A stretch of DNA of 64,000 bases from positions 96,001 to 160,000 of the forward strand of contig CAWKKR010000004.1 in the NCBI GenBank assembly GCA_963850305.1, read 5' to 3'. The translations under genes and the position numbers were made by a program. Below the pieces are notes generated by a model that was given only the letters and a program-made list of their open reading frames with translations, made no database searches and had not been told where the DNA came from. The DNA is from an uncultured delta proteobacterium. Its GTDB lineage: Bacteria > Myxococcota_A > Polyangia > Polyangiales > Polyangiaceae. This document shows, one piece after another, positions 14,372 to 28,297 of the stretch; position 1 is the stretch's first letter, and each line of letters opens with the position of its first letter.

Positions 14372-15142
14372 TCAACCGATGGTCAGAGGTTGACCGGCAT
14401 TCCGGACTACCCCTAACCGACCCTCCGCAATCCGGGTGATCGCGACGATCTTCTCGAAGTCCGAGGCTCGAAAAGCGTGGTCGGGGCGCCCGAGTTCGAC
14501 GAGCGCGTAGAGGCGGTCCGCGCATACTAGTGGCGTCATCGCGACGCCGCTGCACGCCGGAAAGGCACCGAGCCGGTTCCTCACCGTCCATGACGGCGCG
14601 TCGGGGTCCGGCTCCTCGCAGAGGCTCCTTCCCTCGAAAGCGAGCAGCGCCGCGGGATCGTCGAACGGAATCTTGCGTCCGACTCGCCGCGTCGACTTCG
14701 GCCCGGACGTGCAGACCGTCACGAAGCCCGAGCGCGGCGCCCCCCGGCGATGAATCGCTCCGACCCATGCGCCCGTCGTGCGCATCGCTTCCATCAGGCA
14801 TTCGCGGAGCACGTCGCTGGGGTCGTTCGCGCGATGCAGACGCTGCTCGAACGCCTCGAACGGCGACGGCGCGGCGGGCACTTCACGCCAGCGCGCCGGC
14901 TCGATCATCACGTCGCCGCCCGACGCCTGCGCGCGCCGGAGCGCCGCAACTTCGCGAATCCGCTCGACGCTGCGCCAGGTGCTCCATTTTCGCTCGCGCA
15001 CCATGCAATCCGCAGGAACGCGCTCGTGCAAGACGCCGCGGACGAGCAAATTGGTCGTGACCGGCCCGACCGTGACGTCACCGTTCGTCACGAACCAGAG
15101 CGGCGGGGCTTTCTTGTGAAGTAGAACGTGAGCGGTCTGCAT
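14372..15142 (-). CDS. GYF_2 (DUF4339)-like plus GAF-like domain protein
   Basis: WFVTNGDVTVGPV..VRERKWSTWRSVERIRE at the N-terminus. C-terminal GVAMTPLVCADRLYALVELGR..F...D is GAF-like. Confidence 0.65.
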   Translation of the reverse strand: MQTAHVLLHKKAPPLWFVTNGDVTVGPVTTNLLVRGVLHERVPADCMVRERKWSTWRSVERIREVAALRRAQASGGDVMIEPARWREVPAAPSPFEAFEQRLHRANDPSDVLRECLMEAMRTTGAWVGAIHRRGAPRSGFVTVCTSGPKSTRRVGRKIPFDDPAALLAFEGRSLCEEPDPDAPSWTVRNRLGAFPACSGVAMTPLVCADRLYALVELGRPDHAFRASDFEKIVAITRIAEGRLGVVRNAGQPLTIG

Positions 15143-15282
15143 GGATCCGGACCTCGCTTTCCACATTGTCCGTCGCCGGCTCCGGTGGGGCCAAAGAATG
15201 GACTAAGAGCGCGTCCGAGGACGAACCCCGGTCGGCAGATCTCGGTCGAATAGCGAATCGCCGGGCGTGCCGGCTGTGCGGC

Positions 15283-18200
15283 TCAGAGCGGCACGAGTCG
15301 CGACTTCGCGCTGATTTTCACGAGCGCGACGCGCATCCGCTGCCCGTCGAGAACGAACGGCACCGAGCGGCGTTCGCCCGCCGCCGTGATGTCGACGGAG
15401 CCACGGACGGTGCGGGTGTGTCCCTCGGGTCGCGTGACTTCCACGACGTAGTCGCCGGGCGCGCCGCCTTGAAGCGCGAGCCCTTCACGGCTGGTGCTCT
15501 CGACGTCGCGCGCCGTGATGATCGCCTTCGTCGGCGCGCCGAGCCACGACACGCGATTGCCGTCCGACGGCAAGAGCGACAGATCGAGGTCGTCACCGCT
15601 GTCCCACGTGGCCTGTAGACGCAGATCGCCAAGGAGTGCGGACGCATCGGGCGCCGGAACCGCGAGAAGAGCGTCCGCGGCGGTTCGCGTCGCGTCACTC
15701 GCGGCCGCCGTCAAGGCACTCGCGACGTCGGCGTTTCCGAGGTCGCGCTCGCACCGGACGGCTTCCTCGAGCAGCCTGGCGTCCGTCGAGCGGATCTGCG
15801 CAATCGCCAGCGAGTTCCGGCAGCCAAGCGCGGCCTGTCCTGCCCAGCGACGCAGCCGCGCGAGCCTCCACTGCGCCTTGTGATCGCCTGGACGCACGTC
15901 CACCACGCTGCCGAGAATGCGAATCGCGAGCTCGCGTTCGCCGCGCGCCGCGGCAACGTCGGCACGCGCCGTCAACGCGTCGGGGTCGAGCGGGTCCTTG
16001 GCGGACCACTCTTCCGCGACATGACTCGCGCGGTCCACGTCGCCGCTCAGGAAGTACAGCGTGTAGAGCCGCTTCACGGCGTCGCGATCCAGGGCGTTCG
16101 CCGCGGCGTCGCGCTCGGCTCGCGCGATCGCCTCGGGCGTCACCGAGGCGGGCAGCGTCGTGGACGTCACGATCCGTCCGATGCGCTCCCATATCTTCCG
16201 CATCGGAACGTAGCGACGTGGCCAGTACCGCTCCGGCACCTCGGGCTCGAGCGGCGACGGATCGCCGGGTGGCATGAGCATGGGCCTGTCGTCCGTCCTC
16301 CTCAGCGGAGCGCCGGCGGGCGGCGGCGGTGCATAAGCGTGAGCCAGTGCGCCGTCCTCCGCCTCCGAGGCTCGAGCGCGCATCGCCGGCTCCGCGGCCG
16401 CGGACGCAGGCGCCGCTTTTGGCATCGCCGCTCCGGATCCGGAGGCTAATCCTCCGCCGGCTGCCTCCTTTTCATCCCGGTCTCCCGCGTACGCCTCGGT
16501 GCTCCCCACCTCGTCTTTCTTGGCAGTAGCTTCGGGAAGATTTTGTTGCTCCGGATCACGCACGGCGGTTTCACCGTCGGCGCCGGTGCTCACGGCGTCG
16601 TCGTCTCCCGTGTAGACGGCGGGCTGTTCGTCCTGGTGCAAACCGAAGGCGCGGAACATCGCCGCGCTCTCGAGCACCATGAGCGACGTGTACCGGCTCG
16701 CCACGTGGAACCGCCGAGACAGCTCGACCGCGCGCGCGCGGCTCGCAGCGTCGGATTCGTCCTCGAGATCGGCGAGCTCTGCTGCGGCCCAGAGGCGCGG
16801 CACGAACGCGTTGCCCTTCGCCGTCGTGGCTTCGACGTGGAGCGGGTAGCGTTGCTCGAACGGCGCTCCGGCGATTGTTCCGCGCAGCGTGAGCGTGCCG
16901 TCGATGTTCGGACGCGTCATGCGCGCGACGATCATCGTCTCGCCGCCGGCCGCGATCGTCGCGAGCCGCATCGGCGCGACCGCGACGAGTCCGTCGGGGA
17001 GCGCGACGCTCGGGTCGGCGAGCGTGGTCCCGTACGCCGCCCCGAGCACCGCGTACGCGACGTCGAGCGGCGCCTGCCCCGGCACAAACGGCACGACGGC
17101 CCCGCCGCCGGCCTGGGCCATCGTGCGGAGCGTCGCGACGTCCGCGTCGGAACCGATGGCGACCGCGCTCACGGTGCCCGCGCCGCGCGGAACCGCGGCC
17201 TCGACCTCGCGCCGCATGAACGCGGCCGACACGGGTCCGATCGTGGGAGTGCCATCACCAATGTAAATCACACGCGCGGCTCCCGCCGGCGCGTCGCGGA
17301 TCGCGTCGCGCCCGTTCTTTATCGCTAGCCCCAGGTCGGAACCGCCCTCGGGCGTGATGCCGCGCAGGAAATCGGAGACGGCGCGAGCCGCATCGTCGCC
17401 GGGGCTCACGACGTGCGAGGGCAGCTCGCGACACGTCGAATCGCACGCGAGAACCGTGACGCGATCGTCCGGGTCGAGCTCGCGAACGACCCTCGACGCG
17501 AGCTCGGACGCGCGGAGATACCGCTCGCCGAACATCGAACGGCTCGAGTCGACCACGAGCGCGAACTCGCGGAAGGTCCGATCTTCGGCGCGCGGCAGCC
17601 TCGGCTGAAGGGCGATCGCGACGTACGGTGCGCCCCCACCCAGATCGCCCGAGCCCGGAAGGTCCGCTGGCAACGCGGCCGCGCCCACCCCGCTCTGCGG
17701 CGGGGCCGCGAACTCGCCGGGACCCGGCTGATACGCCCACGCAGTGAGCTCCTGCGCGGGGTTCGGGAGCGAATACTCGAATCGACAGATCTCCGTTCGG
17801 CGTGAACCCGTTTGCGGAGAACGAGAGTGACGTCGCGCCCCCGGGCGCCGGCTCTTGCCGGAGGGCATAGCCGTGTGAGCGAACGCCGGCTGCCGGATCG
17901 TTGCCCCGCACCTGGATGTCCACGTCGAAATGACCGACGCGCGTGGAACCACTCGGATCGCGCGGGAGCGGATACACGTACCTGCGGGTGGCACCCGACG
18001 ACGAGATCACCTGCGTGTACGCGAGCACGATGTGTCGCGAACCCCGCCTCGGAATCGGGTAAATCCGGAGTTCGAAGCGCCCCCCGCGTTGCCACTCGAG
18101 CAGCGCCGGGTCTCGCCACGGACCCGGCACCCAGACGATCTCTTCGCCCGCGGGCTTCTTGCCGCCCGCATTTACGATCGCACCGTTCCAGATGGCGGCG

Positions 18201-19923
18201 GCGCGGTTGCGATCGACGAACGCACCATCCACGAGCTTGCCGTCCACGTCGAGCGCGAGACGTTCGATCTGGGCATCGGGCGGGAGCGGAAACCGGTAGA
18301 TGCCCTCGAGCACCTCGTCGGTCGAGTTCGTGAACGTCTCGTCTATCTCGGTACGCGCGATGTTGCCGACGATGCGCACGCGCGTGGTATGCGACGCGAG
18401 CGAAACCGCGCCGGTGCGCTCGCGATCCTGACCGGGCTTCTTTCCGCGAAGCTCACCGAGCCCTTGCATGTCCTCGTCGTTCACCGGTGCGGGAAGAAAT
18501 GCGCGCTCGCTCCAGTTCGCGCCGCTGCCGAGTGTCGCCGTCGGGTAGGACTCCGGCGGCGCGTTACCCTCGATGCGTCCCGCCTCCCCCGCGTGCACGC
18601 CGATGCCGCGTTCCGCGGCGTCGACGAGCCGGAGCGTCCCTCGCACGACTTCGACCGCGGTCCGCCGCGAGTCCGCCGAGGAATCGACGCCTTTGCCGCT
18701 TCCATCTCGACGAAGCCGAGCGGCGTGTCGACTCGGGCGCGACTCTGTCCAGCCCGCACGATATCGACGACGAGAGAGCCGCGATCGAGCCGCGCGCGGC
18801 GTGGCTGATCCCCGTCCAGGTGCAGTTCGCTGTCCTCGTCGAGCACGAACCGCGATCCGTCGCGGAGCATGATGGCGATCCGGGTGCTCGCATCCGTCCT
18901 CAACACCGAACCGGCGGGCACGTCGTCTCCGCGATCGGTCGGACTGCAAACGACCCGATCCGGGCTGCAGCGTTCCACGCCGGAACCATCGCCGAATGCG
19001 CGCGCGACGTCGGTGACCTTGCCGCTCCAAGCGTCGTCGGAATAGCGAGTCGCGTCGGCACGCCTGCGAACGACGTACCAGCCGAACAGGACCGCAAGGA
19101 CGACACCGAGACCCACGAGACGGCGGCGCGCCGACGTGGTCGGCGGCACGGGAGCGGCGGGGGCAGCAGGAGCGGCGGCGGGAGTTGGCGCGCCTTCGGC
19201 TGCGGGTGAAGGAGATCCGGCGGCCGCCCGTCGGGGCGGCGAGACGGGTGCGCTCTGCGGACCGAGGGACGCGACGACGGCGTCGGTGCACGCGTCGATA
19301 TCCACGCTATGAGCCGCTTCGAGGGTTCCCAGGCGCTGGATCGCTTGCTCCACATCGTGCACGCGATCGCGCGACACGTCGTCTTCCGCCACGAAGTCGG
19401 CAATTCTGTCCGGGGCGATTCCGTCGATGATATCGGCGAGGTGCTCCGTGACGTCACCGCGCCGCGCGGCGACCTCGGACGACTCCGCGTCGTCGCTTGC
19501 CGGCCACGGCGCGACTTCCGCGAGCGCTCTCGAGATGCGCGCTCGCGCCGTGTGCTCGTCCACTGCGCACGCAGATGCGACGTCTGAGACGCTGAGACCG
19601 GCTACGTACCGAAGAACGAGTGCATCGCGTTCACTCGGCCGAACGCGGAGCAGAGCCGCGCGCAAGCCGTCGCCGGGAGATTCCGAAGACGCCCGCCGAA
19701 CCTGGGCGCAACGCTTCCTAATGGCAGCGAAAAGACGCGGGCGGGAGAGTGCCTCCGCGTCACCGGTTTCTGCCATTCCGCAAGCCGAGCCGAGAACCTC
19801 GAGCGCGAGGGCACGCGCGTCGTAGCCCAGCGCCGCGCACGCGAATCGCACCAGCCCTAACGCGTCTCGCTCGACCGCAAGCCGCAACTCCAGCCGCACG
19901 TCCGAAACCCTGCCATCTTCCAT
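15283..19923 (-). CDS. Fused ECF sigma-like / anti-sigma-like / TM / FecR / VIT / VWA / TPR protein (~1,545 aa), split by two apparent frameshifts
   Basis: Joins ORFs 18481..19923, 17255..19291 and 15283..17994 at ~18681 and ~17781. Sigma4 ERDALVLRY..GLSVSDVA..TARARISRA; TM LVGLGVVLAVLFGWYVV; FecR LRTD..IMLRDGSRFVLDEDSEL; VIT ARTEIDETFTN..LEGIYRFPLP..DPALLEW; VWA MIDAS DSSRS and GDG; TPR-like helices. Confidence 0.75.
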
Positions 19924-20070
19924 CCGAGGCTCCCGTCCCGCGCCGCTCTGACGCTATCGTCATCGTACGAACCAGGGCCGCGAACAATCCATGAAACGTC
20001 CCCCGTCCCTCAAAAGCCCCCTACTCCGACCTCTCCGTACACCGGACTTCACCGCAAATACCGACCGTAC

Positions 20071-20226
20071 GCACGCCGAGGAGCGAGAGCGCCGAGATGG
20101 GTGCGCGCTCGAAGCCAAAGACGACACGCCGAGGTCCGATTGCGAAGAACGCGGGGGTAGATCGGCGGGTGAAGACCGGAAGCGTTCGAATGCACGCCGA
20201 GAGCGCCGAGATGCCCCCGCGCTCGA
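20071..20226. repeat. Imperfect direct repeat pair, 114 bp apart
   Basis: AGAGCGCCGAGATG-N4-CGCGCTCGA at 20086-20112 and 20200-20226, each preceded by GCACGCCG. Confidence 0.6.
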
Positions 20227-20243
20227 GCAAGCGGCCCTCGGCG

Positions 20244-20720
20244 CTAAGCGATTTGGCGGCGCCGACGCGGCCTACTCTTGCATCGCGGACAACGGGCGTC
20301 GTCCTGGCTTTCGACGATCAACGAGTGGGAGCGACAGTTCGGACAGTGCTCTATGGAGATGAACTCCGCGCGAAAGCCGCACCCCGGACACTCGCCGACA
20401 TTTCTGCCGAACCCGCCGGCGCCATGGCGGTGGTTCCATGGAGCTCCGCACTTCGGGCATGGCGACTGAACCACGTCGGGTCTGACGACGACTTCGCTCT
20501 TGCCGCGCAGCAGCGCCGCCTCGATCTCCAGCCGCTCGCGTTCCTTTGCGCGAAGCGCCGCGTCGCGGTCCTCGAACTCGGCATCGAGTCGCATCGTCGC
20601 CTCACGCTGGCGTAACGTCAGCTCCTGACGCGCTTCGTCGCGGCAGAGGGGCGTGCAATAGAGGCCATCGACTGGGTTCTTGAGCCAGCCAATCTTCTTT
20701 TCGCAATGGAGGCACTTCAT
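20244..20720 (-). CDS. Hypothetical multi-zinc-ribbon protein
   Basis: CLHC, CTPLC, a charged coiled-coil-like stretch, then CPKC, CPGC, CPNC, CPRC and an Arg-rich end. Confidence 0.75.
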   Translation of the reverse strand: MKCLHCEKKIGWLKNPVDGLYCTPLCRDEARQELTLRQREATMRLDAEFEDRDAALRAKERERLEIEAALLRGKSEVVVRPDVVQSPCPKCGAPWNHRHGAGGFGRNVGECPGCGFRAEFISIEHCPNCRSHSLIVESQDDARCPRCKSRPRRRRQIA

Positions 20721-20886: not shown

Positions 20887-22011
20887 TTACTCGGCAGCGG
20901 CGGCGGCACCTGCTGGCATCGCGTAGTTCGGGAGCGGTTCCTCGAGCTTCGCCCAGTCGATCTGGCCGTCGTCGACGAGGTTTTCGAACTGGAGCACACC
21001 GAGTTCGTCGTACAGCGGGCGGACGGAGTCCGTGATCAGACCGACCTTCTTCAGATTCGGGATGATGCGGGTGAAGAGTAGATTCCTGAATTGCTGCATG
21101 ACGCCGCCCGCGAGAGAACGCCGTCGGCCTTCCTCGACGTCCCAGCCATAATGTTCGAACACGTCCGTCGAAACGATGCGTTCGCGCATGACGCAGCACG
21201 CTTCGTAAGCGAATCGCGCGCGATCTTCGCGCTCCTGCTCCGTCAACGACTTGACGAACTCTTCCATGTACGTGACGCCGAACGCAACGTGCCGCGACTC
21301 GTCGCGCGTCACCAGATCGAGGACGTCACCCATGACCGGATCGCGGGCCAGCATCCTCTGGGTGTTGAACGCCGCGAGCGCGAGCGACTCGATCACGAGT
21401 TGCATCCCGATGAACTTCAAGTCCCATCGCTCGTCAGCGAGGATCTTGTCGAGGAGCACTTTGAGGTTCTGATTCACCGGGTACATGAACCCGATGCGCT
21501 CCATGATGTACTTGCCGAACACTTCGACGTGGCGAGCTTCGTCGAAGGTTTGCGACGCGGCGTAGAGCTTCGCGTCGTAGGTCGGCGCGCAACTGACGAG
21601 CTGCGACGCAACGAGGAGCGCTCCCTGCTCCCCATGCAAGAACTGCGAGAGCATCCACGACTGCTGGTGCCACGCAAACTCGATCTCGTCTGCCTCGGAA
21701 AGCGCGTCGTAGGAGGCCCAACCCGCGAAGGGGTTATCGACGCCATCCTGAATCGGATTCTCCTTGCGCGAAAACGGTCGCGACCAGTCGATGTCCGTCT
21801 CTGCGTTCCAGTTTCGCTCCTTGCCCAGCCGGTAAAGCTTCCGGATGCGCCGGTCGGACTCCTCGTAGTTCCATGTGTACGAGCCGACCAACGGCGTTCG
21901 AAAAATCTCCGCGACCGTCTCGATGTCAGCAGCACCGAGGGCCGGATCGTCGACACCGAGACGGAACTTCAGATTTCGAGGTGCACGCTCGACGAACCGA
22001 ACTTTGCTCAT
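20887..22011 (-). CDS. Ferritin-like diiron protein (AurF-like oxygenase family)
   Basis: QFLHGEQGAL..DEARH and IESLAL..DESRH: two E..ExxH diiron motifs. Confidence 0.8.
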   Translation of the reverse strand: MSKVRFVERAPRNLKFRLGVDDPALGAADIETVAEIFRTPLVGSYTWNYEESDRRIRKLYRLGKERNWNAETDIDWSRPFSRKENPIQDGVDNPFAGWASYDALSEADEIEFAWHQQSWMLSQFLHGEQGALLVASQLVSCAPTYDAKLYAASQTFDEARHVEVFGKYIMERIGFMYPVNQNLKVLLDKILADERWDLKFIGMQLVIESLALAAFNTQRMLARDPVMGDVLDLVTRDESRHVAFGVTYMEEFVKSLTEQEREDRARFAYEACCVMRERIVSTDVFEHYGWDVEEGRRRSLAGGVMQQFRNLLFTRIIPNLKKVGLITDSVRPLYDELGVLQFENLVDDGQIDWAKLEEPLPNYAMPAGAAAAAE

Positions 22012-22071
22012 GGGACGAGACTCCTTCACGGGCACGCGCGTTGGGGACCGAGTAAACCGATGCGTGAACAC

Positions 22072-22223: not shown

Positions 22224-24311
22224 GTGAGCGACGACGCCCAAGAGTGGCGCTGGGTCGGCGAGGACGGCGCCGAAAAAACCGTGACTGAACAAGAGCTCAT
22301 CGCGGAGCTCTCGTCAGAATCGCTCCCCAACTACACGTTGGTCTGGAAGAAGGGGTGGCTGGAGTGGCTCCCCGCGATGCAGGTCGCGGAGCTGCTGTGG
22401 GCGCTGCCTCCCGGCAAGGTCGACGTGCCCGTCAAACCGCGAGAAAAGGAGGGTGCCCTAAGCCCGCCAGCTCCGCCGCTTTACCGGTATCCGGTAATGA
22501 AGCGTCGGGCTGCGAGCCTTAAGGGGGACAAACCCGCAGCCGCCTTTGCCGTTCCCCGGCCTGGCCAGGACGCGAAAAAGGCATCCTCATCCCCGGCAGC
22601 CGCGGCTCCGCCGGCGGCGAAGATTGCGCCGGCGCAAGTCATCGACCCGCCGTCGGAACCGTCAAATCCCGAGATTACCGAGCCGAGGCGAAGGCCGGCG
22701 CCCGAACCTCCAACAGAAATCTGGAAACCACTCGACTCGCGGCCCTTCGAGGAAGTCGAAATCGACTCCATCGAAGCATCCAATCCGGGCGCCTCAGCCG
22801 AGGAACGGGACGAGGACGCGACTCTTGTCGCGGACGACGACCACGAACTGATCGCGCCGGAGGAGTCCGACCCGGCCGCGTCGGGTTTCGATCCGCCAAC
22901 CGCCGCGTTCACGGCGCGGTACACGGAAGAAGACGATGCAGCGACGCGCGTGCTCCCGTCGAAGCCGCCGCCGCCGGGTCCGATGTACGTCGGACCGCAC
23001 CTGCCGAGGGCGTCAGAACGTCCTGCCCCGTCTTACGACGACGCCGAGGACGATTTGCCGCGGATCCCACCACCCCCCGCGCCGCCCGCGGACCTCTCTC
23101 TCTACGCCGGAGTGGCGCGCGACGGCGAAGATGGGCAGCGCGCGCGGCGAGTATACGTGATGGGGGGGCTCGCCGTCGCAGCGGCGGCGGCGCTTCTCGC
23201 TCTGGTGATCCGTGGCGGGCGCGAACAGACCACATCCGTCGCGCCGCAAAGCACGGAGGCGGCAGCGAGGCTCACCACGACGAGCAAGTCCGCCCCCGCC
23301 ATCGCCAAACCACGCCGCGAGCCAGCCGCTTGCACGATCGTGACCCAGGCCACCAAGATTGCGGAATGGGCAGACCCTGCGATCACACCCGCCTTCGCAG
23401 CGATCCCCGGATCGGAGCGGGTCGTCATCGGGTTCGGACAGTCGGGCACTTACGCGATTGGCATCACGATCGACCCGCGCACGCTCGACCACGATCAGGT
23501 CTTTCGCGAATTCCGGCACGACAAGCTGGTCAGCGTGGTCCCAACGGCGAAGAACGGCGAGTTGCACTTTCAAGTGGTCAGGGACGGCTTCACGCTCGCC
23601 AACGCGCGAAGCATCGACGCGGCCACGCCATTTTTCCTCGGCGCGACGGCGAACGGGATCGAACGCCTCGTGGGGAAGGGCGACGCTTCACCCGTCTGGC
23701 CGTTTGCGGACGCGGACAAGGAAACAGTGCCGCGCGTCGCAACGGTCGACGGGGTCGGGCACGCCGTCGCGCTGCGGCGTGGCGGGTTGAGTGGACGCAT
23801 CTCCATCGGCTACCTGAATCCATCGGGTGACCGACAGACGGACCTCGCCGACATCCGCGTGAACGCGACCTTCGTCGGAACCCCTGCGGTGGCCGCCAAC
23901 GACGGGACCTTGCTGGTCGCGTTCGCGGCGCGAACCGAACGCAATTCACCGTGGACCCTTGCGCTCGCGCAGGCGAAGTTCGGAGAGCTGCCGAAAGACG
24001 CCAGGGCATTTCCGATTCCCAGTGGAGGACCGGGCGGCAACGCCATCTCTCCTGCGATCGGCCCGCTCGCTGGCGACCGATGGTTGCTTCAATGGACGGA
24101 AGGTTCGTCCGGCAACCGGGTAGCGCGCGCGCAGGTGCTCGACCGGGCCCTCTCACCCATCTCCGACCCAGTGAATCTCTCCCCCGAGGGCGCGAATGCC
24201 GGTCAGGGCGCAGTCTGGGCAAAAGGGGACGTCGGCACCATCCTCTACTACGTACAGAACGACAAGAAGAGCCACGAACTCTGGGGCACCTCGGTCCAAT
24301 GCACCCGGTAA
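22224..24311 (+). CDS. GYF_2-domain bitopic membrane protein with Pro-rich linker and beta-rich extracytoplasmic domain
   Basis: EWRWVGEDG..TLVWKKGWLEWLPAMQVAEL, Pro/Glu-rich linker, TM YVMGGLAVAAAAALLALVI. Confidence 0.75.
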   Translation: MSDDAQEWRWVGEDGAEKTVTEQELIAELSSESLPNYTLVWKKGWLEWLPAMQVAELLWALPPGKVDVPVKPREKEGALSPPAPPLYRYPVMKRRAASLKGDKPAAAFAVPRPGQDAKKASSSPAAAAPPAAKIAPAQVIDPPSEPSNPEITEPRRRPAPEPPTEIWKPLDSRPFEEVEIDSIEASNPGASAEERDEDATLVADDDHELIAPEESDPAASGFDPPTAAFTARYTEEDDAATRVLPSKPPPPGPMYVGPHLPRASERPAPSYDDAEDDLPRIPPPPAPPADLSLYAGVARDGEDGQRARRVYVMGGLAVAAAAALLALVIRGGREQTTSVAPQSTEAAARLTTTSKSAPAIAKPRREPAACTIVTQATKIAEWADPAITPAFAAIPGSERVVIGFGQSGTYAIGITIDPRTLDHDQVFREFRHDKLVSVVPTAKNGELHFQVVRDGFTLANARSIDAATPFFLGATANGIERLVGKGDASPVWPFADADKETVPRVATVDGVGHAVALRRGGLSGRISIGYLNPSGDRQTDLADIRVNATFVGTPAVAANDGTLLVAFAARTERNSPWTLALAQAKFGELPKDARAFPIPSGGPGGNAISPAIGPLAGDRWLLQWTEGSSGNRVARAQVLDRALSPISDPVNLSPEGANAGQGAVWAKGDVGTILYYVQNDKKSHELWGTSVQCTR

Positions 24312-25210: not shown

Positions 25211-26653
25211 CACTACTGCCAGAAAGTTTTCCATCGGTCGAGCTTCGTGAGATGGCCTCACCATGGCCCAAAAAGTCTCCGAAATCGCATCAGCGGCTCG
25301 ACTCGAGCAGTTCTTCGGCCGCGTCGGCACTCACCTGAAGGACTGGCGGAAGCGAGAGTCGTTCGCGATGTACGCTTTCGGGATCCTGGGGGACGGTGAG
25401 CGCAAGAGCGCCGAACCGATCGCAGCCCGAACGTGCGCCGACCCGAGCCAGACGAACAACGTGCACAGCAAGCTCTGCTACTTCCTCGGCCGAAGCGAAT
25501 GGGATGATCGAGCCGTACGCCTCGAGGCCGCCCGGTATGCAATCGACGCCGTGCAGAAACGCGAACCCGTGACGACATGGATCGTCGACGACACGGGTTT
25601 CCTGAAGCAAGGCTCGCACTCCGTGGGCGTGCAGCGCCAATACACTGGATCGGCGGGCAAGGTCACGAACTGCCAGGTCGGGGTCAGCCTCGCGGTGGCG
25701 ACGAGCAGCGAGCAGATCCCACTCGATTTCGAGCTCTATCTCCCCAAGAACTGGGCAACGGAAGCCGCCCTTCGTGCCAAGGCGCGAATTCCCGATGCGG
25801 TCACGTTCAAGACCAAGATCGAGCTTGCCATCGAGATGATCGAGCGCGCCAAGCTCGCCGAGATCCCGGGCAACATCGTTCTGGCCGACGGTGCGTACGG
25901 CGCGAGCTCGGAGTTCAGAAACGCGAGCCGGTCGATGGGATTCGACTTCGGCGTTGGCATCCCGTCGAGCCTGCGCGTGGTGCGACTCGATCGTCTGGAC
26001 CGAGCGCGCGGGGACGCGATGACCGCTCTGGAATTGGCGGATGCGCTCGGTCGAAAAGCGTTCCGCAAAGTGACCTGGCGTCATGGCTCGAAGGCAAAAC
26101 TGATCTCGCACTTCTGCTTCGTGCGCGTGAAGACGACGCATGACGACGGGCTCACCCTGGCCGACCACGAGCCGCTCTGGCTCGTGGCCGAGTGGCTCGA
26201 TGGCGAAACAAAAGCCCACGAAATTCACGCTCACCACGCTGCCGCGACGCATGAGCCGGAAGCAGATCGTCCGGATCTTCAAGGAACGCTGGCGCACCGA
26301 ACGCATGTACGAGGACCTGAAGGGCGAACTCGGACTCGACCACTTCGAAGGTCGCTCGTTCACCGGCTGGCATCACCACGTCTCCGTCGTCTTATGTTGC
26401 TACGCCTTCGTCATATCCGAGCGCGTCAGCGCTTTTCCCCCCTCGGCCGGAGGGCGCAGTCGAGACGGTCAGAATCTCCGTCGCGGCCTGAGCGACACTT
26501 CGCCGACTCCTTCATCACCGCTCGCCTCGCCATCGCCCTCTTCCTCGCCCGCTGGCTCCCGCGCTGCCCCCTCTGTCACCAGCCACATCCACCTTCGCGA
26601 TGCCCGCAGGAGCAACCTACCCGTGCCGCATGACGGAATTTCTGACAGTAGTG
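25211..26653 (+). mobile_element. IS701-family insertion sequence, 1,443 bp
   Basis: TIRs CACTACTGCCAGAAAGT (25211-25227) and reverse complement CACTACTGTCAGAAATT (26637-26653), 15/17 identical. CTAA duplicated at 25207-25210 and 26654-26657. Confidence 0.93.
25263..26633 (+). CDS. IS701-family DDE transposase with internal frame switch
   Basis: IVDDTGFLKQGSHSVGVQRQYTGSAGKVTNCQ and LADGAYG. The conserved RWRTE..LKGELGLDHFEGRSF.GWHHH block lies in the +1 frame after AAAA at 26210-26213. Confidence 0.9.
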   Translation: MAQKVSEIASAARLEQFFGRVGTHLKDWRKRESFAMYAFGILGDGERKSAEPIAARTCADPSQTNNVHSKLCYFLGRSEWDDRAVRLEAARYAIDAVQKREPVTTWIVDDTGFLKQGSHSVGVQRQYTGSAGKVTNCQVGVSLAVATSSEQIPLDFELYLPKNWATEAALRAKARIPDAVTFKTKIELAIEMIERAKLAEIPGNIVLADGAYGASSEFRNASRSMGFDFGVGIPSSLRVVRLDRLDRARGDAMTALELADALGRKAFRKVTWRHGSKAKLISHFCFVRVKTTHDDGLTLADHEPLWLVAEWLDGETKAHEIHAHHAAATHEPEADRPDLQGTLAHRTHVRGPEGRTRTRPLRRSLVHRLASPRLRRLMLLRLRHIRARQRFSPLGRRAQSRRSESPSRPERHFADSFITARLAIALFLARWLPRCPLCHQPHPPSRCPQEQPTRAA

Positions 26654-28297
26654 CTAACCTTCCGCATGTTTCGCGTCGACCCGCAGCTTCTCGAGCAGCG
26701 CCTTCGACTCGGGGTTCGGTAGGTGCCCGGCGAGGGCTCGGACGATGGCAGGCACGGCGTCGCTGCCAAACTCGTGAACGACGAGATGCTGAGCCTCGGT
26801 CGAACCGAATTCGACCATCGTCAGGAGATCGCGCAACATCCGCGGATCGCCCCGGGAACCGTCGTCGACTTTGAGGGCGATCGCGTATTCATTGAGTGCA
26901 TCCTTGAACCATTTTCGAACGACATAACTTCGGGCAAGCAGCAGGTGCCCGCGCGGATCGCCGACGTGCTTCGCGTTGTACTGATGAACGGCGAGTACGT
27001 CCTTCTTGTCGAGGCCCCGTGCACGGTTGGCTTTGGGTATCAGCCGCGCGAGTTCGGGCGGCGTCGAGGACCAGGGATCGCGCGGGGGAACGCGTTCTCT
27101 CGTAGGTTCGGTCGCGGCAACGGACGCGACAGGACTCGGTGGCGCGGTCGCAGGTAACGTTCTCGGGGCCCCGGCGGGAGACGCGAAACTTCGCGCGGTC
27201 ACGACCGGCGCGACAGCCTTTGGCGCAGACATTCCGAGTCTCGACTCGAGCGCACTCCGTTGCCGGGGACTCGTCGGCGTCGCGAGGACGTAAACGGCGT
27301 AAACGACGAGCCCCGCTGCGCCCATCGAAATGATCAGCGCGACGGTGGTGCCCACCCGGATCATCCACGAGAAGGCTGCCGAGGAGACGGATTTCGCAGC
27401 GGGCATCTCCGCCTCTCCGGCGAGCGGTTCTGCCTCTCCGTCGGTCGATCGGGCGGGCCCGTCGCCGAGCAAAGTCGACTCGAGCGCACCCAGCATGTCG
27501 CCGGCGTTCGAGAATCTGTCCGCGCGGGACTTCGCCGTGGCCCGCCGGATCACGGCGAGCTCTCCGTCACGCGCCTCCGTCGATGGGATCTCCGCGAGCG
27601 GAAGATCCTCCATGACCTGTTGTCGCAGGATCTCCGAAGCCTCCCCGCGAAACGGCGGTTTGCCGGCGAGCATCTCGAAAAAGACGAGGCCCGCCGCATA
27701 GACGTCGATCCGCGCGTCGATCTCCTGCCCCGCGACTTGCTCCGGCGCCATGTACGCCGGCGTTCCGAAGATCTGGCCGACGCGGGTGAGGTTCGGGCTC
27801 GTAGAATCCGGTATCAAGAATTTCGCGAGCCCGAAATCGAGCAAGTGAACGGAGAGTCCGCCCCCGGCCTTCTTGCCAAGGAGGACGTTCGCGGGCTTCA
27901 CGTCACGGTGCACCAGGCTCTGCGAATGCGCGAACGATAGCGCAAGGAGAAGCTGACGCATCACGGCGCGCGCATCATCGAGCCCGAGCGGACCGCGCTT
28001 GAGCCGATCGGCAAGCGTTTCGCCCTCCAGGAGCTCCATCACGAGGAAGAACGTATCGCCCGAAACGCCGGAATCGATGACGGAGACGATATTGGGATGG
28101 GAAAGGGCCGTCAGGGCCCGGGCTTCGCGCTCGAACCGCTGCCGGAGCTCCGGGCTCGATGCAAGCTCCGGGCGAAGGACCTTGACCGCGACGTTCGCGC
28201 CCGTCTCGAGCTTGACGGCCCTGTAGACGGCCCCGACACCGCCAGAGCCGATCTCCGCATCGATGCGATAGCGGCCGTCTAGCTCCGTCCCGATCAT
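26654..28297 (-). CDS. Membrane-anchored Ser/Thr protein kinase
   Basis: IGSGGVGAVY, VAVKVL, HRDVKPAN, DFGLAK, GTPAYMAPE, one TM segment, TPR-like C-terminus. Confidence 0.93.
   Translation of the reverse strand: MIGTELDGRYRIDAEIGSGGVGAVYRAVKLETGANVAVKVLRPELASSPELRQRFEREARALTALSHPNIVSVIDSGVSGDTFFLVMELLEGETLADRLKRGPLGLDDARAVMRQLLLALSFAHSQSLVHRDVKPANVLLGKKAGGGLSVHLLDFGLAKFLIPDSTSPNLTRVGQIFGTPAYMAPEQVAGQEIDARIDVYAAGLVFFEMLAGKPPFRGEASEILRQQVMEDLPLAEIPSTEARDGELAVIRRATAKSRADRFSNAGDMLGALESTLLGDGPARSTDGEAEPLAGEAEMPAAKSVSSAAFSWMIRVGTTVALIISMGAAGLVVYAVYVLATPTSPRQRSALESRLGMSAPKAVAPVVTARSFASPAGAPRTLPATAPPSPVASVAATEPTRERVPPRDPWSSTPPELARLIPKANRARGLDKKDVLAVHQYNAKHVGDPRGHLLLARSYVVRKWFKDALNEYAIALKVDDGSRGDPRMLRDLLTMVEFGSTEAQHLVVHEFGSDAVPAIVRALAGHLPNPESKALLEKLRVDAKHAEG

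Follow-up and report, generated by a model that had tools for sequence, protein, structure and literature searches.

A degenerate sigma-like head fused to a giant FecR-VIT-VWA anti-sigma protein in Polyangiaceae, probably no longer a transcription factor

When a sigma factor of the extracytoplasmic function (ECF) type is found on one polypeptide chain with its anti-sigma factor, does the chain still deliver a sigma factor to RNA polymerase, or has the sigma part become something else? The question is raised by a gene on the minus strand of a 64,000-nucleotide stretch of DNA (the window; positions 96,001 to 160,000 of contig CAWKKR010000004.1, assembly GCA_963850305.1) from an uncultured delta proteobacterium of the family Polyangiaceae. 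Read from an ATG at 19923 down to 15283, this gene encodes about 1,545 residues once two small frameshifts are allowed for, which comprise a pseudo-sigma, an anti-sigma domain (ASD), one transmembrane (TM) helix and FecR, VIT, VWA, TPR and beta domains. The original prediction had proposed this single polypeptide as a candidate signalling system, whose sigma might be released by proteolysis or whose DNA-binding output might be formed by sigma4 alone. We find that the fusion is real and that sigma decay and fusion arose at least twice, and that the sigma in its fused form probably does not act as a signalling output. With moderate confidence, we propose a single-pass membrane protein in which a closed pseudo-sigma/ASD cap would sit inside the cell with no transcriptional output, a metal-dependent, ligand-binding VIT-VWA region would lie outside, and expression would depend on another sigma.

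The frame runs without a stop from the sigma-like N-terminus to FecR, as predicted and as the Pfam matches bear out: sigma4 is followed first by DVTEHLADIIDG..DFVAEDDVSRD and a Pro/Ala linker, then by a single hydrophobic helix and the FecR domain. The VIT, VWA and weak TPR matches lie beyond it in two other frames. No stop interrupts the sigma4-ASD junction (19440-19540) in the window, the junction is in frame in all six congeners, and the fused gene is present as a single copy in every one of the seven genomes of the genus (G000, the window's own, to G006), which rules out an assembly artefact; the earlier judgement that the fusion is real, with no stop/start junction after sigma4, thus stands, and it is not the case that all close relatives have two genes. 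The congener genes are single open frames of 1629-1790 codons from stop to stop (one, of 1131, is ended by the end of its contig), and three intact fused homologues tile 15283..19923 across three frames in tblastn. A protein search added nine further fused proteins, some identical to proteins of the genus genomes, and metagenomes added three further loci; the records are labelled Polyangiaceae.

In other Polyangiaceae, including cultured Sorangium and Polyangium, homologues occur as two genes, an intact ECF sigma and a giant ZAS-type anti-sigma, and it is from such a pair that the fused gene derives. In 88 of the 119 loci with a VIT domain, duplicates included, a separate sigma lies immediately upstream; 9 were scored as fused, and 22 are sigma-less or cut; L077, missed by the fusion profile, is fused by eye. 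In a VIT-VWA tree of 112 rows, from which 15 had been removed because they were short or duplicated, the 14 genus-type fused proteins fall into a single clade (support 100) nested among split systems; such proteins occupy 8 of the 43 rows of a second tree. The sigma and anti-sigma genes of split loci mostly overlap or sit a few bases apart, often in frame, so that fusion needs little change. With one split sigma as query, an intact orthologue was not found in G000-G006 or in G078 and G206, and the best intact sigma matches in G000-G006 reached 34-36%. The split-locus ECF is widespread and apparently undescribed.

The fused head has lost positions that the split sigmas keep almost without exception. 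Its sigma2 region (19693..19866) was rightly called degenerate in the original prediction: although it superposes on ECF sigmas in the structural model described below, Sigma70_r2 (PF04542) gave no match at E <= 1 in any of the six fused proteins scanned (split control, E 5e-14), and TIGR02937 scored 28.6 bits against a cut-off of 42.9 (control, 79). The QE glutamine that contacts the core enzyme (column 101 of the alignment) is present in 76/77 split and 0/14 fused sequences, and the aromatics at the start of the -10 loop (column 114) and at the W position (column 123) are each present in 77/77 split and 0/14 fused. Columns 114 and 123 probably correspond to F64 and W73 of E. coli sigmaE. The F64A and W73A substitutions of sigmaE slow open-complex formation (PMC6648896). 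The sigma4-like helix-turn-helix (HTH; 19513..19665) is a different case, as the N-terminus does match the Sigma70_r4_2 (PF08281) profile, at residues 87-135 (E 1e-8 and 3e-9 in two scans; 36.8 bits against a cut-off of 25.7). The claim that sigma4 is well formed holds for the HTH itself and not for its usual DNA-facing positions: within the S-F-R-E motif, F/Y at column 216 (76/77 split) and R/K at column 217 (70/77 split) are absent from all 14 fused heads, as is the recognition-helix K at column 232 (70/77 split), which is replaced by six different residues among the 14, none of them newly fixed. At matched divergence (62-70% VIT-VWA identity; 69 fused and 335 split pairs, which are not independent), fused pairs are 36% identical in sigma2 and 56% in sigma4, compared with 73% and 79% for split pairs.

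The putative helical ASD (19321..19458) matches a profile of split ZAS N-termini, and the model has helices at residues 149-200. Loss of the Zn ligands, also claimed in the original prediction, is borne out, since HxxxCxxC, replaced by DFVAEDDVSRD in the window, is missing in all 15 aligned genus-type heads and kept in 70/81 split relatives. Zn-ligand loss as a consequence of fusion was considered and rejected, as 11/81 split anti-sigmas also lack the motif and other fused lineages retain the ligands.

The promoters changed along with the protein. GGTCAC-N17/18-CAC lies upstream of the split sigmas in 70/75 loci. When all loci with enough upstream DNA are counted (141 of 158 distinct loci), the GGTCAC motif precedes 113/125 intact-sigma loci vs 0/16 degenerate ones, intact meaning at least 195 bits, a cut picked after the scores were seen and on a profile built on split sigmas; by the same division, 0/125 intact and 13/16 degenerate loci are fused (counting L210, whose contig ends early). 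The strict form was found in 30 of the 121 genomes of the family, with a single site in 29 and two sites in the other, compared with one occurrence in total in the control, and 28 of the 30 inspected strict sites sit before a split-type sigma. Taken together, these sites suggest that GGTCAC-N18-CAC is an autoregulatory promoter with few other targets. The window's genome has no strict site, and the looser GGTCAC element is not enriched in it (5 vs control 3). At the split loci themselves (e.g., L139, L149, L178-L207), the candidate promoter reads GGTCACRAA-N15-CACATG, with about one strict site per genome; its ATG is in the frame of the sigma at 28/28 sites, and a second Met follows mostly 7-10 codons on, suggesting two start sites.

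In place of GGTCAC, the fused gene is preceded by a candidate ECF-type promoter, GGATT-N16-CGTA (19966..19990, minus strand; GGATC-N16-CGTA in congeners), which is probably read by another sigma. GGATY-N16-CGTA, with the same spacing, lies upstream of all seven genus genes and of three metagenomic ones. A plain promoter swap at fusion was nonetheless rejected, as the retained upstream motifs are already at intact loci: by patterns picked after the sequences had been inspected, RGATY-N16-CGTM (the GGATY..CGTA type) precedes 17/122 intact split loci vs 1.3 expected and TGMAAR..CGTT (TGCAAG/TGAAAG-N16-CGTT) precedes 43/122 intact loci vs 0.2 expected, while one or the other precedes 13/16 degenerate loci. 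Both elements therefore look like older inputs from other sigmas; intact loci that bear them include L143, L243, L108 and L126. No regulon of GGATC-N16-CGTA was found, the 12 other strict sites in five congeners having no clear downstream gene, and a scan for a sigma70 promoter or terminator at the gene start returned nothing. An imperfect direct repeat of about 35 nt (window ~20081-20116 and 20199-20234, by eye) lies in the intergenic region upstream of the candidate promoter.

Decay and fusion arose at least twice. The fused L221 is sister to L276, which is split and degenerate, within a fully supported clade of intact systems (supports 99/100), and there the GGTCAC element has decayed in place; approximately unbiased (AU) tests on 30 rows with FecR added reject a single origin for the genus with L221 (p 3e-8) and for the genus with L124 (p 1e-4). 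On the shorter VIT-VWA core, a single origin was not rejected for the genus with L077 (p 0.45) or for the genus with L124 and L166 (p 0.14). Further fused degenerate heads, all of which keep CxxC, are found in genus g73 (L077, L078, P0013-P0015), in L124/P0073/P0040, in L221/P0022 and in L222, P0023 and P0078 (L221 and L222 being single metagenomic contigs, which P0022 and P0023 resemble), and the overall pattern suggests up to about six origins. The sister relationship of a split but degenerate system to a fused one suggests, moreover, that decay came before fusion. Among the best 150 representatives retrieved with the fused profile, a query that favours degenerate forms, 8/8 of those scored as fused to this ASD are degenerate. 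Five loci (L276, L277, L279, L287 and L134) are split, with a partly degenerate sigma (150-207 bits) and without GGTCAC, and are possible pre-fusion intermediates. In another direction, seven relatives (L118, L140, L146, L161, L163, L164 and L175) form a fully supported clade without sigma or ASD, in which FecR-VIT-VWA is preceded by a hydrophobic segment whose last residue is Cys and which by eye resembles a lipoprotein signal; the outer part can therefore stand alone. One of the representatives retrieved, P0147, has an unrelated, intact-looking ECF sigma fused to a ZAS domain with no TM helix.

It is the outer part that likely carries the selected function. Behind the Pro/Ala-rich linker (19129..19260) and a basic stretch lies the single predicted TM helix (19069..19125; Kyte-Doolittle (KD) hydropathy 1.72), the sole 19-residue window with KD >= 1.5 across the three pieces of the gene, which predicts a single-pass topology. 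It is followed by the FecR-type periplasmic domain (18497..19041; PF04773 E 1.1e-7; PupR 6ovk E 2e-8), which spans the first frameshift, the VIT domain (18017..18397; PF08487 E 1.7e-15) and a VWA domain with an ITIH-like tail (16633..17571; PF13768 E 6e-12; ITIH4 E 9e-30, ITIH1 E 4e-22), whose metal-ion-dependent adhesion site (MIDAS) motif, DSSRS at 17550-17536, is invariant in 12/12 fused proteins. The original prediction had recognized VIT and a DSSRS-bearing VWA beyond two small shifts, and Pfam agrees; of the TPR-like helical region (15658..16218), it can be said that TPR_14 matches weakly, below cut-off, with weak TPR_14/TPR_19 matches in homologues. The C-terminal beta domain (15286..15630) is conserved, with a weak PPC match in one homologue. 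In the matched comparison, fused pairs are at least as alike as split pairs in the other domains (FecR 59/49, TPR 70/55, C-terminal domain 66/57 and ASD 60/53% identity).

The head is predicted to fold as a closed sigma/anti-sigma bundle. An AlphaFold2 model built with 15 sequences is compact (predicted local distance difference test (pLDDT) score 90.6, predicted template-modelling (pTM) score 0.86), and its closest folds are anti-sigma-bound SigW, RpoE and CnrH together with PhyR (Z 11-12, root mean square deviation (rmsd) 2.8-3.6, 116-137 residues aligned), including 5wuq (Z 12.0, rmsd 3.6, 134 aligned), 5uxx (Z 12.0, rmsd 2.8, 135 aligned) and PhyR 4qic (Z 11.1, rmsd 2.8, 116 aligned), although chance alone can bring helical bundles close to such a Z of 12. 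Polymerase-bound full-length sigmas mostly lie at rmsd 21-28 to the model. The ESM Atlas gave clusters without a name (0.90-0.93) and others of the sigma + zf-HC2 kind (0.87-0.88), which serve as leads only. Ratios of nonsynonymous to synonymous substitution (dN/dS), from rough Nei-Gojobori counts on 2-7 sequences with dS near saturation, are 0.14-0.43 for sigma2, 0.17-0.28 for sigma4, 0.17-0.26 for the ASD and 0.76 for the linker.

From these observations a history can be sketched. The ancestral operon would have had two genes, its ECF sigma being sequestered by a ZAS anti-sigma that formed the beginning of the giant protein; once freed, the sigma would have read GGTCAC-N18-CAC, found essentially only before its own operon, and this positive loop would have boosted the amount of giant protein. 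In the genus, the loop would have been lost as the promoter vanished and the sigma shed its DNA- and polymerase-facing positions; expression would have come to depend on an upstream promoter that another sigma reads, and the tightly coupled genes would have lost the stop that separated them. The sigma fold may have been kept because it shields the anti-sigma helices and so keeps the head folded and stable, or because it acts as a docking surface.

Several points weigh against such a transcriptionally silent cap. The head is under purifying selection, for which a passive cap accounts only in part, and none of the genus-type fused proteins was seen to have lost it. The acidic content around sigma2.2, where the DAED motif is needed for core binding (PMC8999054), drops only modestly, to 3.1 residues in fused vs 4.0 in split sequences, and R233 and the PxERxA motif are invariant. 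The linker in the sigma part is 14-24 residues long in fused proteins vs a median of 36 in split ones, which is weak evidence for inactivity because SigL of Mycobacterium tuberculosis manages with 20 residues (bioRxiv 10.1101/381020). Any sigma tied to its ASD would be expected to give a closed model, and Foldseek with the head model returned nothing at E <= 0.001. Finally, 12/125 intact loci also lack the GGTCAC motif, the loci compared are kin and hence not independent, and the division into intact and degenerate shares the after-the-fact cut noted above.

What else might the head do? It might be a sigma mimic or decoy, in which the head, freed by intramembrane proteolysis, would either titrate the anti-sigma of another ECF with its pseudo-sigma or release the ASD to bind another ECF, coupling the VWA sensor to a different sigma by PhyR-like partner switching. 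Sigma4 and the ASD are under selection at the level of FecR, the ASD is more conserved in fused than in split pairs, TM and FecR are intact, and the window's genome has some 24 other ECF-like genes; PhyR structures are among the closest folds, and NF006623 (PhyR) gives a weak match (E 1.5e-4), far below cut-off. Yet no receiver domain appeared in the Pfam and NCBIfam scans, no partner was identified, pseudo-sigma and ASD are tethered together so that each must escape the other, the closed state by itself accounts for the resemblance to PhyR, and the sigma-less, lipoprotein-like relatives do without any such head. We regard this alternative, the main rival to the cap, as unlikely, and we are equally hesitant about its broadest form, in which a self-activating ECF loop would have given rise, by convergent evolution and as many as about six times within Polyangiales, to membrane-tethered pseudo-sigma/anti-sigma switches with VWA-FecR ligand sensing, each rewiring a different ECF.

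Two further alternatives retain a role in transcription, and it is the lost positions and the promoter counts that bear on them. A working tethered sigma of the IutY type with switched specificity, freed by proteolysis and reading GGATC-N16-CGTA in an autoregulatory manner, would fit the conservation of that motif before every genus-type fused gene seen, the lack of GGATY..CGTA within 400 nt of the 24 other ECF-like genes of G000 and the presence of both sigma domains in the model. We consider it improbable: the motif accompanies GGTCAC at 17/122 intact loci and so predates the decay, it is not enriched in G000 (235 vs ~200 in shuffled sequence), nothing new has become fixed in place of the recognition-helix K, and the rate of sigma2 divergence is double that among split pairs. 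A DNA-binding regulator made of sigma4 alone, its freed HTH binding a -35-like site as repressor or co-regulator, is as hard to credit. PF08281 is above cut-off in 3/4 full-length genus-type proteins as well as in the window, sigma4 has the low dN/dS given above, R233 is kept in 14/14 and S235/R236 mostly so; but F/Y216, R/K217 and K232 are lost in 14/14, R231 is E in three, the conserved sigma4 positions are mostly those of structural helix, and the ancestral GGTCAC is neither upstream nor enriched in G000. The two outputs envisaged in the original prediction fare accordingly: a released working sigma does not sit with the loss of the sigma2 and sigma4 positions in 14/14, of the candidate cognate promoter, and with a fusion seen only with degenerate sigmas, and the loss of the F/Y-R and K positions leaves the sigma4-only output unsupported. 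We thus retain the transcriptionally silent cap.

A separate question is whether the window's own copy is still a gene. Both frameshifts lie downstream of the sigma4-ASD junction; the first (18674..18690, +2 nt) and the second (17773..17788, +1 nt, where 2/5 aligned congeners have GATC) are both in a GATTC context and are probably long-read sequencing errors, although this reading is unproven because GATTC is not enriched genome-wide (no GATC-to-GATTC excess was seen in G000) and no reads cover the sites: contigs of one DNA run (0.09 share) span neither the junction nor the shifts. That the shifts are genuine, making the gene a recent pseudogene in G000 alone, seems to us quite unlikely, even though two fall within one gene and only one other was found among 30 G000 loci tested (~29 genes; the assembly has 11 contigs). 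All three G000 shifts examined break at GATTC, a common context typical of systematic error, the three pieces of the gene are otherwise stop-free, the part downstream is 62-73% identical to its nearest homologue, and the gene is unbroken in six congeners. The other shift, of +1, is in a gene that by eye resembles an Fpg/Nei glycosylase (G000:C4:147133).

The surroundings of the gene are only partly shared by its relatives. Upstream lie a Cys-rich zinc-ribbon/coiled-coil gene with weak Pfam matches (20244-20720, minus strand) and an AurF-like di-iron gene (20887-22071, minus strand), which keep this order only in genus-type loci. Two GYF_2-domain proteins flank the region (14372-15166, minus strand, and 22224-24311, plus strand), of which the former also has a weak GAF match and was not found beside the gene in relatives. 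Farther on, a transposase-like reading frame (25263-26874, plus strand), presumably IS701-like, seems to continue in another frame after ~26280.

The wider interest of these proteins is that a sigma fused to FecR need not be an IutY-like signalling unit, an easy misreading that is corrected here. The intermediates trace the death or repurposing of an ECF system, in which the self-promoter is lost, the DNA-facing residues decay, the genes fuse and, in one clade, a lipoprotein-like signal takes over entirely, and they bear on the origin of sigma mimics such as PhyR; were the doubtful tethered-switch reading true, there would be a repeatable route from sigma factor to PhyR-like mimic. A by-product is an ECF of Polyangiaceae for which GGTCAC-N18-CAC is a sharply defined candidate promoter; the main target is seemingly its own giant VIT-VWA anti-sigma, which is testable in cultured Sorangium or Polyangium.

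How does this protein compare with known systems? Sigma4-only proteins are common (10.64898/2026.10.08.757525), and tethered working sigmas and the pseudo-sigma PhyR are already known; in a literature search that covered few subscription papers and only some supplements, nothing was found on a VIT + VWA + anti-sigma + ECF system or a relevant "pseudo-sigma", nor any published description of the system in the window. Like IutY of Pseudomonas putida (ECF243), it combines on one chain an ECF sigma fold, a single TM helix and a FecR-type domain in the periplasm (PMC5411451, PMC9249621, PMC8999054); the IutY sigma, as described there, is functional and is freed by Prc/RseP, and IutY lacks a cytoplasmic ASD and acts together with a TonB receptor. 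The sigma of the window protein, by contrast, is degenerate and followed by an ASD, VIT-VWA-TPR extends the outer part, and a TonB receptor was not noted in the neighbourhood examined. ECF48, ECF52 and ECF53 (e.g., SCO4117) likewise place a ZAS-type domain, TM helix and outer domain after the sigma; according to the same survey, they are actinobacterial, have extensions of up to ~400 residues and are classed as working sigmas (PMC8999054), whereas the window protein has an extension of ~1,400 residues, has lost the ZAS ligands and has a sigma2 below the Pfam threshold. The chain thus has the architecture of tethered sigmas, with sigma, TM helix and outer anti-sigma domain together, and by profile and column losses it lacks their intact sigma. 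Closer in lineage, the Myxococcales/Polyangiaceae ECFs with a zinc-finger TM anti-sigma (ECF216), a TM extension (ECF220) or a FecR-TPR anti-sigma (ECF267) are set apart by their descriptions, none of which, in the portion available, includes VIT-VWA or a conserved promoter (PMC7826278). The outer part resembles inter-alpha-trypsin inhibitor heavy chains (ITIH) and bacterial VIT-VWA proteins, in which VIT is followed by a MIDAS-bearing VWA and a downstream module (here with the DxSxS, T/D and DG residues; TIGR03788 E 2.5e-30, below cut-off), and differs in its anchoring, which is N-terminal, with a FecR domain and an anti-sigma head in front. For the head, the nearest parallel is PhyR of the ECF15 partner switch (PMC8999054), a sigma2/sigma4 fold that is not a transcription factor and that matches the model closely in the closed state; the head of the window protein, by its model and its columns, likewise has a sigma-like fold without the transcription residues, but PhyR is soluble, carries a receiver domain and binds a separate NepR, whereas this head would be tethered to the membrane together with an ASD of its own.

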